A DNA stretch of 64,000 nucleotides from an uncultured Clostridia bacterium (GTDB taxonomy: Bacteria > Bacillota > Clostridia > TANB77 > CAG-508): positions 14,619 to 78,618 of the forward strand of contig CAKPKF010000004.1 in assembly GCA_934167175.1 (NCBI GenBank), given 5' to 3'. Positions 26,099 through 36,058 of this stretch are shown piece by piece (within the stretch, counting starts at the first letter, position 1; each line of letters opens with the position of its first letter). The notes beneath the pieces are model-generated. The model was not told the origin of the DNA. It made no database searches and saw nothing but the letters and a program-made list of their open reading frames with translations. Position numbers and translations under genes: made by a program.

Positions 26099-27151
26099 AT
26101 GATACAAAAAATTAGTATAAAAGATTATAAAAAGGAAATTCAAGAGGAAAAATATGAAAATATATACAGAGATTTAATTGGTAAATCTATGGAACTTGTA
26201 AAAGAAATAGGAAAGATTAAAAAATTCGAATTTTCAGAAGATGAAGAAGGCAGAACTTTATTTTGTAGTATACAGATTTATTTCAAAAAGAATTTTGGAG
26301 AGTTTTCAAATGTCTATTATTTAATGAAAGATTTGAGTGAATGGAATTGTGAAGATAACTATGTTTACGATACTTATGAAAAAAAGATTAATAATATTAT
26401 TGTAAAATATAATAATTTAATTGTAGAATTAGAGATATATAGAAAAATAGAAGAAGAAATAAAAGGAAAGAAATTTGAAAAAGTATTAGAAGAACGAGAA
26501 GAAAAATGTAGAAAACTCTTTAAAGAAATGCTTGAATATAAAAATAAAGAATATAATGAAAAATGGGACATGATAGAACTTATTGAAAAAGTAATTCAAT
26601 ATTATAATTTCTATTATGATGAATTACGTGAACTAAAACAAGTTATGTCTGGAAATTTTATTGAATTTGATATAGAAGAAGACTTAGTTGAAATAGATAA
26701 TATTGAAAGAATAATGTTAATTGATGAAATTTATAGATTGATTGTTGATGAAGACTATAAAAAGGTTGCGTATATGTATAGAGATTTTGAACTAAAAGAT
26801 GGACAAACATACAGTGATTTATATGATTTGGAATACAAAAAATTAGATGAACTGTATAAAAAAATGCTTGAATTTGTTGGAGAAGAAAATTTGGAAAATG
26901 AAAAGAATTTAGAAGGTAGAATGTTAGAGAGATATCCATTTTATATTTTAGATATCAAAAGAATAAACTCATATGAACCATGTTCAGTTATAGAACGATT
27001 GAATACAATGGAAAACATATATGAAAAATTATCGAAAGACTATAAAAATTATGAAGAAAACATGAAAAAATATGAGAAATTTCAAAACATGACAGATGAA
27101 AATGAAGAAGAACTTGAAGAATTAGAAGAAACAATGGATGAATTATTTTAA
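26099..27151 (+). CDS. Hypothetical acidic protein (operon gene 1)
   Basis: 350 aa from the ATG at 26099 (AAGGAG RBS); Glu/Asp/Tyr-rich with an acidic tail; no motif recognised. Confidence 0.55.
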   Translation: MIQKISIKDYKKEIQEEKYENIYRDLIGKSMELVKEIGKIKKFEFSEDEEGRTLFCSIQIYFKKNFGEFSNVYYLMKDLSEWNCEDNYVYDTYEKKINNIIVKYNNLIVELEIYRKIEEEIKGKKFEKVLEEREEKCRKLFKEMLEYKNKEYNEKWDMIELIEKVIQYYNFYYDELRELKQVMSGNFIEFDIEEDLVEIDNIERIMLIDEIYRLIVDEDYKKVAYMYRDFELKDGQTYSDLYDLEYKKLDELYKKMLEFVGEENLENEKNLEGRMLERYPFYILDIKRINSYEPCSVIERLNTMENIYEKLSKDYKNYEENMKKYEKFQNMTDENEEELEELEETMDELF

Positions 27152-27240
27152 TAAGTATAATAACAAAAGAAGGAAAAATATTTGGACATGAGTTAAATAA
27201 AAAAAATTAATTAAAGAAATAAAAAATAAGGAGAAGTTAT

Positions 27241-27576
27241 ATGGATGTTAGTTTGTTTTTTGAAGTAAATGGAAAATTTTTAATTCATTCCTGTAAAAAA
27301 GAAAATGCTGAAAAATATGGCGATTTTTTAAATTATCCTCAAAGTCATATGGAAATTTGGGACCAATATTATTATTCAAAATATAATGTGGATTTTGACT
27401 ATTTTCTAAGAGGCAGAGTAGTTTATAATATTAAAGAAGACAAATATTACTTATATCATGATAAATGTATAAAAGATTTAAGCAGTTTTATTTGTGAAGA
27501 AGATAAAGAAAAGATTGAAATCAGAGAAGATTTTCATTATCAATGTCACAAGTGTAATAAATACTATACAATGTAA
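27241..27576 (+). CDS. Hypothetical small protein (operon gene 2)
   Basis: 111-aa ORF, AAGGAG RBS; C-terminal HYQCHKCNKYY knuckle-like motif. Confidence 0.5.
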   Translation: MDVSLFFEVNGKFLIHSCKKENAEKYGDFLNYPQSHMEIWDQYYYSKYNVDFDYFLRGRVVYNIKEDKYYLYHDKCIKDLSSFICEEDKEKIEIREDFHYQCHKCNKYYTM

Positions 27577-27588
27577 GGAGTAATATTT

Positions 27589-33493: not shown

Positions 33494-33500
33494 AAATATA

Positions 33501-35330
33501 ATGAAAGGACAAACTATGTTAAGTGATGAGATAAAAAAATGTATTTTTACAGAAGTGAAAGGCATATATGCTGAAAGCCAACCAGAAATAGAAGATGTAG
33601 ATATAGAAAAAAGAATAGATATATTTGCAATGGCATTATCACTTTCGAAAGATATTGATGATGAGATGCTAAAACAGGCAGAAAATAATGTGTTTCAGAT
33701 ATTTAATGATATAAATAATGCTAAAATAGTTGACATTAGAAACATATCACAATTAGAGTTGTTGTTAAGATTAATACAATATTTAGTAAATGAGCAAAAA
33801 TATTTAGAAAAAGAAATGAATGATGCCATGCTTGGAAAATTGTTTAAGGAATTAGATGTATTACAAGTAAAAGGAAACCAAAGTAAAAAAAATTATTATA
33901 ATATTATGATGGAAAAAGTAGAGATGCCCAATCAAAAAGCAAGACCATATGAATATGACGAAGAATTACATTCTGAGAAGAGATTAGAAAACGATAAAAA
34001 AGTTTTACCATTTATAAAAGCATATAATGGAAGAAATACAATAGTTCACTCAAAACCAACTCCAAATAAATGGGAAAGATTTTTCTGTGCATTTTATACA
34101 GTTATAGAAACTTGCTATAATTATAGGGAAATAATAATAAAAAAATATGTACAAAAAGAAATTTCTTATAAAAATTATATAGATAACATAATAAAAAAAT
34201 ATCAAGAAAAAAACGGAGAAAATTTTAAGTATATCCCATTAGAAATAGAATGTTACAGAAATGATATGTATTATGAGCTTAGTGCAATTTATCCAGAAAA
34301 AACCACTTTTGAAATAATAAATACAGATATAGAAAATAAAAAGATGTTGAATGGAAATAAAAGATTTAACAAAGCAAAAATAATTGGATTTGCAGGAATG
34401 GGAAAAACTACAACACTAGAAAACATTATGTATAAGGAAGCATTAGAAATAAAAAAACATTCATACCAAGGGGTATTACCTATAATGTTGGAAATGATAG
34501 AAGTATCTAATGAAACCGACGAAAATAGTATAGAAAGTTTAATAGCAAAAAAATTAGAAACAGACACTTTAACAGTTAGTTATTTGATTTCAAAAGAGCA
34601 AATAAAACTATATATAGATGGTATAAACGAAATTAGAATATCTAATCAAAAGGAAAAAAAGAAATATCTAGACCAAATTGAAAAGTTTGTAATTAGTAAA
34701 CCAAAATTAAAAATAATAATAACAGATAGAGATAATAATGAAAATTCTATTTTAAATAATTGTCCTACATTTGTGTTAACAGGTGTTACTAAAGAAAACA
34801 TTATTAATTTTATAGAAGGAAATACTGTTCCAGAAAAAGTGGAATTTGTTAGCAAAGCTGTTAAGGAGGCAATGGAAGAAAACATAGACTTAATAAATAC
34901 TCTTCGCAACCCATTTATGCTAAAAAATATAATTTCAATTGTAGAATGTAATAAAAAAATTCCAGAAGATTCTGATGAAATTGCGGAAGTATTTATTAAG
35001 TCAATAGTAGAAAGAGAACGAATAGTAAAAAGAGATTACTATGCAAAACATATAATAAGACTACTAATATATTTAGTGGCAGAAGATAGCAAAAACAAAG
35101 ATGGAATGATAGATGAAAATATATACATTAGTTATTTTCAAATAATTAATATATTTAATGAATACTCTGATAAATATAATCCAAATGATAGATTCGATAA
35201 TGATAAAATGTTAGAGTTAATCATAAGACTTGGAATTTTAAAACAGATAGATATAGAAAATTATACTTTTGTAGATAATAGATATTATAATTTCTTTTAT
35301 TTTTCTGCAATAAATACAGGGTTATTATAG
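33501..35330 (+). CDS. NACHT-like STAND NTPase with N-terminal HEPN-like domain (operon gene 6)
   Basis: Paralog of gene 5 (GFAGMGKTT, LYIDGINE, KIIITDRDNNE, RNPFMLKNI, same C-terminal GI(F/L)K-DIE-Y ending), plus GRNTIVH (RNxxxH) in the N-terminal region of about 290 aa. Confidence 0.65.
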   Translation: MKGQTMLSDEIKKCIFTEVKGIYAESQPEIEDVDIEKRIDIFAMALSLSKDIDDEMLKQAENNVFQIFNDINNAKIVDIRNISQLELLLRLIQYLVNEQKYLEKEMNDAMLGKLFKELDVLQVKGNQSKKNYYNIMMEKVEMPNQKARPYEYDEELHSEKRLENDKKVLPFIKAYNGRNTIVHSKPTPNKWERFFCAFYTVIETCYNYREIIIKKYVQKEISYKNYIDNIIKKYQEKNGENFKYIPLEIECYRNDMYYELSAIYPEKTTFEIINTDIENKKMLNGNKRFNKAKIIGFAGMGKTTTLENIMYKEALEIKKHSYQGVLPIMLEMIEVSNETDENSIESLIAKKLETDTLTVSYLISKEQIKLYIDGINEIRISNQKEKKKYLDQIEKFVISKPKLKIIITDRDNNENSILNNCPTFVLTGVTKENIINFIEGNTVPEKVEFVSKAVKEAMEENIDLINTLRNPFMLKNIISIVECNKKIPEDSDEIAEVFIKSIVERERIVKRDYYAKHIIRLLIYLVAEDSKNKDGMIDENIYISYFQIINIFNEYSDKYNPNDRFDNDKMLELIIRLGILKQIDIENYTFVDNRYYNFFYFSAINTGLL

Positions 35331-35359
35331 AAAATATATAAAAAAGGAGGAGTAAAATT

Positions 35360-36058
35360 ATGAATTTAAATGAAGAAAAAAATTGTAAAAGTAAATTAAT
35401 AATAGTTATATTAGTAGTATTAATTATTGGAATAGTTTTATTAGGGGGATATTTTGTTATAAAAAATCAAAAAAACACTAATAAAGCTGAAAATAATGAA
35501 ACAAAAGATACATCTGAAGTAACAACTTTAGGAAAAATAAAATTAAGCTGTATTGATGAAGAAAATAACCCCATTGCTGGTTGTGAATTTGAATTATTAG
35601 ACAATGAAGAAAAATCGTATGGAAAAATAAAAAGTGGAGATGATGGAATAATTACATTTTACAAAGTTCCAGAAGGTGATTATAAAATAAAACAAATAGA
35701 AACAAATCCTGAATACGAATTAAAAGAAGAAGACACTAAAAATGTTACAGTAAAAGGTGGAGAAACATCAGAAGTGACTTTTGAAAATAAAGTGATATTA
35801 GGAAAATTTGAAATAACTGTAGTTGATAAAAATAAAAATGCCGTAAAAGGTGCGGTTTTTGAAATTACTGACAATGATGATAAAATTGTTGACACAATAA
35901 GCTCTGAGGAGAATGGTAAGTGTTCTACTACTGTAAGATGTGGAGTGTATTATGTAAAAGAAAAATCAGTACCAGATGGATTTACAATTGATACAAAACC
36001 TTATGCTTTTACAGTAGATAAAGATAATAGGACATTTTATAAAACAATAGAAAATTAG
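35360..36058 (+). CDS. Secreted or anchored protein with two Cna-B/SpaA-type (prealbumin-fold) repeats
   Basis: N-terminal TM/signal anchor. Two repeats of the pattern GAxFEL-D......S.e.G...f..v..G.Y.vkE...P.G(Y/F). Confidence 0.6.
   Translation: MNLNEEKNCKSKLIIVILVVLIIGIVLLGGYFVIKNQKNTNKAENNETKDTSEVTTLGKIKLSCIDEENNPIAGCEFELLDNEEKSYGKIKSGDDGIITFYKVPEGDYKIKQIETNPEYELKEEDTKNVTVKGGETSEVTFENKVILGKFEITVVDKNKNAVKGAVFEITDNDDKIVDTISSEENGKCSTTVRCGVYYVKEKSVPDGFTIDTKPYAFTVDKDNRTFYKTIEN

Follow-up and report, generated by a model that had tools for sequence, protein, structure and literature searches.

What does an island of seven closely packed genes do between the housekeeping genes pgi and thrS of an uncultured Clostridia bacterium (GTDB lineage TANB77; CAG-508)? 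The island lies in a stretch of 64,000 nucleotides of contig CAKPKF010000004.1 (hereafter the window, whose coordinates we use unless another locus is named), where seven plus-strand open reading frames (ORFs), P1-P7, fill positions 26099-36058 with successive gaps of 89, 12, 80, 14, 7 and 29 nt. A first-pass annotation, made from the letters alone, had described a seven-gene operon with two NACHT-type NTPases and proposed a candidate antiphage system resembling the nucleotide-binding leucine-rich-repeat (NLR) receptors. The shared orientation, the gene sizes and the very short gaps (7-89 nt) all hold, but the unit conserved throughout is smaller than seven genes and consists of P4, P5 and P6. 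We conclude that this trio probably constitutes a three-component NLR-like conflict system, most likely acting in anti-phage abortive infection. Its genes and key motifs are the following.

28500..31838, plus strand: P4, the giant, 1112 aa; likely start at M5 (28512); proposed sensor or scaffold encoded by a separate gene
31853..33493, plus strand: P5 (NACHT-A), 546 aa; Pfam NACHT; N-domain homologous to that of P6 but without RNxxxH
33501..35330, plus strand: P6 (NACHT-B), 609 aa; HEPN-like N-domain at about residues 1-240, then a NACHT module made up of nucleotide-binding domain, helical domain 1 and winged-helix domain (NBD-HD1-WHD)
32603..32632, plus strand: Walker A (P-loop) of P5, residues 251-260, GYAGAGKTTT; invariant in alignment A3
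34386..34412, plus strand: Walker A (P-loop) of P6, residues 296-304, GFAGMGKTT
33756-33770, plus strand: upstream Ex3[R/K] of P6, E86...R90; E86 invariant, R or K at +4
34032..34049, plus strand: HEPN-type motif of P6, R178-N179-x3-H183; predicted ribonuclease (RNase) catalytic residues

The trio recurs as a set. A NACHT-A protein (~550 aa), a NACHT-B protein (~600 aa) and a giant (1,100-1,900 aa) are encoded together in 13 divergent lineages (window/L001, L004=L012, L009, L013, L014, L015, L016, L017, L115, L117, L119, L121 and L122), in three gene orders: giant-A-B in the window, A-B-giant at most loci and A-giant-B in L017. The two NACHT genes are adjacent, or have the giant alone between them, in all 13. 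A Muribaculaceae locus has a two-gene form with only NACHT-B and the giant. The tight link between the NTPases and the 1112-aa protein suspected at first pass extends to every related NACHT pair examined, each of which has a P4 homologue beside it; giants adjoining NACHT pairs match P4 by BLASTP at 4e-47 and 4e-42, and the P4 family aligns with the Muribaculaceae giant at an hhalign probability of 96.8%. Because a search begun from the giant side again found a NACHT pair upstream in both of the newly placed loci (2/2), we regard the trio as the conserved core. Beyond it, P1 occurs in 3 lineages, the C-terminal part of P3 in 2, a SpaA protein like P7 in 2, and P2 in the window's lineage only.

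P5 and P6 are paralogous NTPases of the NACHT clade of STAND (signal transduction ATPases with numerous domains) proteins, as had been proposed. The motifs GYAGAGKTT, LYLDGVNE, RIIATDRD and PLMLK of P5, and GFAGMGKTT, LYIDGINE, KIIITDRD and PFMLK of P6, are all in the translations, so that both proteins have the Walker A GxxxxGK[ST], Walker B and sensor-1 T-x-R of NACHT STAND NTPases. Walker B D, G, N and E and sensor-1 T, D, R and D are invariant across the NACHT-A and NACHT-B alignments; GYAGxGKTTT, DGxNE and TDRDN are invariant in the NACHT-A alignment (A3), as are G296, A298, G299, G301, K302, T303 and T304 of the P6 Walker A in alignment A1. The usual NACHT Walker B consensus is DGhDE, and P5 and P6 have Asn in place of its second Asp. 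The Pfam NACHT model (PF05729) scores P5 at 31.9 bits and P6 at 30.4 bits, a small margin above its gathering score of 26.7; P6 also reaches Pfam NB-ARC (23.9 bits), and 16/16 NACHT-B orthologs match Pfam NACHT at E <= 1 (best E 1.9e-8). An AlphaFold model of P6 built from the 16-ortholog alignment (mean predicted local distance difference test score, pLDDT, 88; predicted template-modelling score 0.76) has NLRP3, NLRC4 and NOD2 as its top Foldseek matches in the PDB (E 1e-8 to 1e-7 over ~380-430 columns), and only generic AAA+/clamp-loader matches among viral structures. The NBD-HD1-WHD fold of P5 is assigned through its full-length homology to the modelled P6: the two proteins share ~37% identity across ~420 aa, and their families align over residues 4-602 (hhalign, E 3e-92). 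Residues ~50-150 of P5 are variable and indel-rich in alignment A3.

The P6 model stops at residue 609, directly behind its winged-helix region, and P6 therefore has no sensor in cis. We found none of the usual C-terminal sensors (repeats, FGS or SNaCT) and no match to a repeat family in Pfam, in keeping with the earlier description of both NTPases as short and devoid of such a domain. A C-terminal sensor is typical of NLRs but does not define the NACHT module. Nor do P5 and P6 have a DNA-binding or other regulatory output domain, as judged from Pfam and the P6 model. Gene callers start P6 at M6 (33516; 604 aa) on identical contigs, a start that the alignment of homologues favours. We propose that P6 is the effector subunit and P5 its adaptor or regulatory partner.

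The main ground for these roles is the N-domain of NACHT-B, ~240 residues that are confidently all-helical in the AlphaFold model and that, from their motifs, are likely a HEPN-type RNase. The signature of HEPN RNases is an Ex3[KR] plus an Rx4-6H with a polar residue (N/D/H) after the Arg (PMC3710099), and NACHT-B has such an Rx4-6H with Asn in the polar position. R178, N179, H183 and E86 are invariant in 16/16 NACHT-B orthologs, which are 43-92% identical to P6. RNxxxH is kept even in distant homologues of 24-26% identity, as RNEFAH in L018 and RNEWSH in L119; the Ex3[KR] is ESFCK in L018, and the equivalent stretch of L119, EGCLQ, does not fit it. The NACHT-A family has no conserved residues opposite R178, N179 and H183 (hhalign; alignment A3). 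HEPN was named in passing at first pass; its motif is present in P6 and missing from P5, and no HEPN profile detects it. The two NTPases are genetically linked NLR paralogues with asymmetric N-domains, NACHT-B keeping RNxxxH and NACHT-A not. A HEPN site is a composite that requires a pair of Rx4-6H motifs, so the motif-less NACHT-A would be an adaptor/nucleator or a brake.

The third component, P4, belongs to a family with few detectable members: an exhaustive phmmer search over 1.84 billion representative proteins returned just 18 giant relatives, and word-indexed searches with P4 or the giant alignment gave only two near-identical sequences, as low-complexity words of K, E, N and I saturate the candidate list. 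P4 matches nothing in Pfam, NCBIfam, PADLOC or PHROGs. Its AlphaFold model (pLDDT 72.9) comprises a helical N-domain (1-134), a low-confidence helical linker (135-292), a helical solenoid-like domain (293-605) and then three repeated modules, each a helical segment plus a small beta domain, with the marker hhxhY[MK][NR][TS]xxK at 575, 778 and 1004. Longer giants elsewhere have extra copies of this repeat, and the N-domain is the best-conserved part among giants (37% identity to L004). Foldseek against the PDB gave nothing at E <= 1e-3; the weak tetratricopeptide-repeat (TPR)/solenoid resemblance below that level is generic, and we did not adopt a TPR assignment. On identical contigs, P4 is called from M5 onwards (1108 aa). 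From its position, size, repeats and divergence, we guess that the giant is the sensor or recognition partner.

Two features of the P4 gene concern its integrity and repeats. The first is a homopolymer tract:

29526..29533, plus strand: A8 tract inside P4; A9 in the L001/L002 ortholog (L001 ~9880-9897)

The A9 form, present in two independent assemblies (L001 and L002), causes a frameshift that leaves the giant in two parts of 341 and 735 aa; the gene there may be a pseudogene, may tolerate being split, or may undergo phase variation through slippage. An apparent split of P4 in L019 (778 + 283 aa, ~2000-2135) was rejected as a pseudogene, as the run of N there is a scaffold gap. The second is a perfect 23-nt direct repeat at 30549-30571 and 30684-30706, 135 nt apart, which encodes EKFIKEQ twice within the linker before the second repeat module.

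Genome comparison shows a locus that is hypervariable and appears to be mobile. The island has a GC content of ~22%, against ~28% in its flanks, and it is not core among relatives: in L036, the closest relative with a long contig, pgi (8360-9682) and thrS (9998-11902) are ~315 nt apart with neither the DUF5665 gene that precedes the island in the window nor the island itself between them. ThrS and Pgi of L036 are 75% and 71% identical to those of the window, and positions 8360-11902 of L036 look like an empty site. Between the window and its sister lineage L001, the flanking proteins are 97-99% identical, whereas the island proteins diverge by 8-35%: identity is 92% for P6, 87% for P2, 83% for P5, 81% for P1, 78% for both P3 and P7, and 65-71% for P4, making the giant the least conserved and P6 the most, a pattern that we read as the mark of an arms race. 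In a pattern-based scan of GTDB, the NACHT-B family appeared in just 7 species across Firmicutes and Bacteroidota, namely uncultured gut Clostridia or Bacilli, Ca. Coprosoma and one Muribaculaceae.

Elsewhere, the trio sits in differing housekeeping contexts and adjoins IetA/IetS, a HipA-like PDC-M03A, PDC-S01, an MNT-HEPN pair or RelB/ParE. A complete IetA/IetS pair (PADLOC E 1e-48 and 2.5e-67) lies at 2452-5743 of L115, two genes 5' of a P1-like gene. The suggestion of a defence island is thus borne out by a low-GC, lineage-specific, hypervariable insertion and by defence and toxin-antitoxin neighbours in other genomes, but the anti-phage function itself is something that we infer. No named system is recognisable, in agreement with the first-pass annotation: PADLOC-DB v2.0.0, including its Avs/AVAST models and candidate PDC entries, gave no match for P1-P5 or P7 and only a P-loop-level match of P6 to mad8 (E 0.006, 14 bits), and none of the seven proteins gained a useful match from NCBIfam, PHROGs or PADLOC.

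How might such a trio work? The fast-evolving giant would supply a recognition or guard surface, as C-terminal repeats do in single-chain bacterial NLRs. On trigger, it would license the two sensor-less NACHT paralogues to co-oligomerise in an ATP-dependent manner; the clustered NACHT-B N-domains could then form composite Rx4H RNase sites that cut cellular and/or phage RNA and stop growth. NACHT-A, which keeps its ATPase motifs and has lost the HEPN residues, may act as an adaptor/nucleator between the giant and NACHT-B, as in NAIP/NLRC4, or alternatively as a pseudo-HEPN partner that keeps NACHT-B inactive until the trigger. A bolder version is possible, though we hold it tentatively: an obligate three-part paired-NLR receptor in which the giant, of a family without known fold relatives, detects, and the dead NACHT adaptor nucleates polymerisation of the HEPN-NACHT RNase, a prokaryotic counterpart of NAIP-NLRC4 and of plant sensor-helper pairs.

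Several observations weigh against a mobile, RNase-based defence system. The island occupies the same site in every same-species contig that is long enough and in the sister lineage, a pattern also compatible with a cellular function that is lineage-specific and fixed. Nothing directly indicates mobility, because searches of phage genomes and viral contigs found no relatives and those of plasmids found just distant NACHT domains on E. coli plasmids; no integrase was found at the island, positions 25200-36400 hold only AT-rich chance matches where flanking direct repeats or integration scars were sought, and no known defence gene adjoins the island in the window itself. As to the effector, no Pfam HEPN family matches any of the 16 NACHT-B members at E <= 1 and a PDB sequence/profile search with the NACHT-B profile gave nothing relevant, so that the HEPN/RNase assignment rests on a short motif. 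Likewise, the sensor role of the giant is a guess because it has no recognisable ligand-binding fold.

These points leave room for three other explanations, of which the first to consider is that the N-domain of P6 is no HEPN RNase at all: the output could be NTP depletion, scaffolding or an effector in the giant or P1-P3, with RNxxxH serving a structural role. This fits the failure to detect a HEPN family or structure by sequence in any of the 16 orthologs, and non-enzymatic, NACHT-specific N-terminal helical domains have been described by Kibby et al. (10.1101/2022.07.19.500537). Whole-model Foldseek of P6 likewise listed NACHT and other P-loop ATPases as top matches, with no HEPN structure among them. 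However, it is known that profiles hardly detect HEPN families outside the Rx4-6H motif (PMC3710099), the R, N and H of the Rx4H are invariant down to ~25% identity, the upstream Ex3[R/K] accompanies them in the 16 orthologs and L018, and the motif is lost specifically in the paralogue NACHT-A, as expected of catalytic residues. We therefore think a different output unlikely.

A less likely explanation still is that the trio is an addiction module, or a system directed at plasmids, mobile elements or rival bacteria, with NACHT-B as toxin and NACHT-A and/or the giant as antidote. The pairing of an active with an inactive HEPN protein does resemble a toxin with a pseudo-enzyme inhibitor, and toxin-antitoxin genes are the commonest recognisable neighbours. 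The frameshift variant cuts both ways, as loss of the giant appears to be tolerated in the sister lineage but, were the giant the antidote, the L001 frameshift should be lethal. Very large genes and two intact ATPase modules are atypical of toxin-antitoxin systems, and an effector N-domain joined to a NACHT module is an architecture validated in anti-phage bNACHT and Avs proteins, which favours the anti-phage interpretation.

MalT and AfsR are examples of bacterial STAND proteins that act as regulators, and the trio might accordingly be a non-defence signalling or regulatory module, for instance in control of a surface or envelope function tied to the adjoining SpaA or other membrane-anchored proteins, with RNxxxH serving RNA processing or regulation; its fixation at one site, the lack of a PADLOC match and the membrane or secreted neighbours in about half of the lineages (P7; Spa1/2 in L004; a lipoprotein-like 224-aa protein in L017; 495 aa in L018; 643, 219 and 194 aa in L119) could all be read this way. 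We consider this the least probable explanation, since P5 and P6 have no DNA-binding or regulatory output domain, the family is extremely patchy, the island is missing from the nearest pgi-thrS relative, its proteins diverge between strains with near-identical flanks, IetAS, toxin-antitoxin and PADLOC candidate genes lie beside the trio elsewhere, and the membrane-protein neighbours are, SpaA cases apart, mutually non-homologous.

An anti-phage trio would have precedents for its parts. N-terminal HEPN domains fused to STAND or NACHT modules are a documented conflict architecture (PMC3710099; 10.1101/2022.07.19.500537), but each of the described HEPN-STAND fusions is one protein that carries a TPR, S1 or cold-shock-like domain at its C terminus (PMC3710099), whereas the window family matches no Pfam HEPN model and consists of an A/B pair plus a giant. 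With the bNACHT proteins (Kibby et al., Cell 2023; 10.1101/2022.07.19.500537), whose N-terminal RNase effectors include HEPN, it shares a NACHT module with an N-terminal effector domain. Some bNACHT clades are also short, such as bNACHT01 with its SNaCT domain (10.1101/2022.07.19.500537); the window family has neither a C-terminal sensor nor an SNaCT-like variable tail, and it differs further in pairing an active with a degenerate NACHT protein and a separate giant of 1,100-1,900 aa. Avs/AVAST proteins (Gao et al. 2020, 2022; Nature 2026, PMC13581612) follow a similar logic of N-terminal effector, STAND NTPase and large helical-repeat sensor, with effector domains activated by oligomerisation (PMC13581612). 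In Avs these three parts make up one polypeptide with a TPR-like sensor, whereas in the trio the presumed sensor is separate and the NTPase duplicated; no PADLOC model, Avs included, matches the window proteins.

The closest parallel in organisation is eukaryotic. Paired or helper NLRs include NAIP-NLRC4 in animals and RGA4/RGA5 and RRS1/RPS4 in plants, and like them the trio has linked paralogues, one executing and the other with a diverged, non-executing N-domain; P6 is also closest by Foldseek to NLRC4, NLRP3 and NOD2. Common descent of the pairing is nevertheless unsupported. The bacterial paralogues have no leucine-rich repeats or in-cis sensor, a giant is an obligatory third component, and the predicted effector is of RNase type rather than CARD, CC or TIR. 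Nothing relevant on tandem or paired bacterial NACHT proteins came out of a literature search, and the large STAND surveys searched describe no such trio. Already known, then, are HEPN-STAND fusions, anti-phage bNACHT proteins and the single-chain logic of Avs; new are the obligate asymmetric NACHT pair and the separate giant of an undescribed family.

The remaining island genes are accessory or of uncertain membership.

26099..27151, plus strand: P1, 350 aa, acidic, helical; AAGGAG ribosome-binding site 8 nt 5'
27241..27576, plus strand: P2, 111 aa, Cys/His-rich; membership uncertain
27589..28419, plus strand: P3, 276 aa; probable accessory gene
35360..36058, plus strand: P7, 232 aa; hydrophobic segment 7-37 and two extracellular SpaA (prealbumin/Cna-B-type) immunoglobulin (Ig)-like domains; membership uncertain

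P1 is an accessory, lineage-variable gene of the system, with homologues directly 5' of NACHT-A in L016 (35% identity, phmmer 1e-46) and L115 (30%, 1e-22). P3 is probably another: its C-terminal 100 aa resemble a 123-aa gene directly 3' of the giant in L115 (29% identity, phmmer 3e-8). The only homologue of P2 is in the sister lineage L001/L002. None of P1, P2 and P3 matches a family in Pfam, PADLOC or NCBIfam, or an entry in PDB sequence searches, and sequence comparison shows no similarity that would make them detached pieces of longer giants, an idea we rejected. P7 does carry the Cna-B-type repeats first reported for it (Pfam SpaA E 2.5e-29, two stretches), but with an N-terminal hydrophobic anchor and no LPXTG motif it is better called membrane-anchored than secreted. 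Small anchored SpaA proteins like it follow the giant in L004-L008/L012 (24-30% identity) and are absent from other lineages; P2 and P7 may or may not belong to the system. Membrane-anchored, lipoprotein-like or secreted Ig-like proteins adjoin the trio in about half of the lineages (L017 11757-12431; L018 8360-9847; L119 7965-9896 and 18966-20225; L014 7941-10376; L004 17421-19484) and, SpaA cases aside, are not homologous to one another.

The flanks are as first described, with pgi upstream (PF00342, matched on an identical gene; a YchF gene precedes it) and a thrS T-box downstream. In a metagenome-assembled genome of rabbit-gut Bacilli (L015, 241-1595), the trio also lies 3' of ychF, with only a RelB/ParE pair between them, and the ychF-proximal region may be a recurrent insertion site. 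Two regulatory features border the island.

26034..26063, plus strand: candidate promoter of the P1 cluster; TTAGAA, spacer and extended -10 TGTTATAAT, ~35 nt 5' of the P1 start; read by eye
36126-36323: T-box leader of thrS; 69.5 bits, E 5e-15, below the Rfam gathering score of 93

The candidate promoter is not among the listed matches of the promoter consensus scan, and the T-box is missed at the default threshold because its score falls below the gathering score. A consensus scan found no plus-strand terminator between 26099 and 36058, and none is predicted between P7 and the thrS promoter at 36083-36111; that promoter, in the thrS leader, is the best sigma-70-like one of the region (11/12 matches), and the leader has a terminator hairpin at 36313-36346. 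The DUF5665 gene placed next to pgi at first pass is there (25348-25655) but is frameshifted near 25490: the unrepaired ORF (92-96 aa) has no Pfam match, and joining the frames gives 97 aa that match PF18910 at E 3e-20. Since the identical truncated 92-aa call occurs in all related contigs, the frameshift seems to be genuine and common to them. Between DUF5665 and P1 lies a 68-aa ORF (25772-25978), preceded by a good ribosome-binding site, that is annotated in every related contig and is conserved in L001; it matches no family.

The RNxxxH and Walker A residues offer ready mutational handles on the predicted activities. In the bNACHT and Avs receptors studied to date, effector, ATPase and sensor essentially share one polypeptide; the trio would split these functions. 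If our reading is true, prokaryotes too have two hallmarks of the NLR networks of plants and animals: paired NLRs that divide the labour, and sensing assigned to a separate protein. A new family of 1,100-1,900-aa proteins without detectable relatives would then have a function, and the low-GC gut Firmicutes and Muribaculaceae, under-studied bacteria whose phage biology is poorly known, would be credited with a defence system specific to them.

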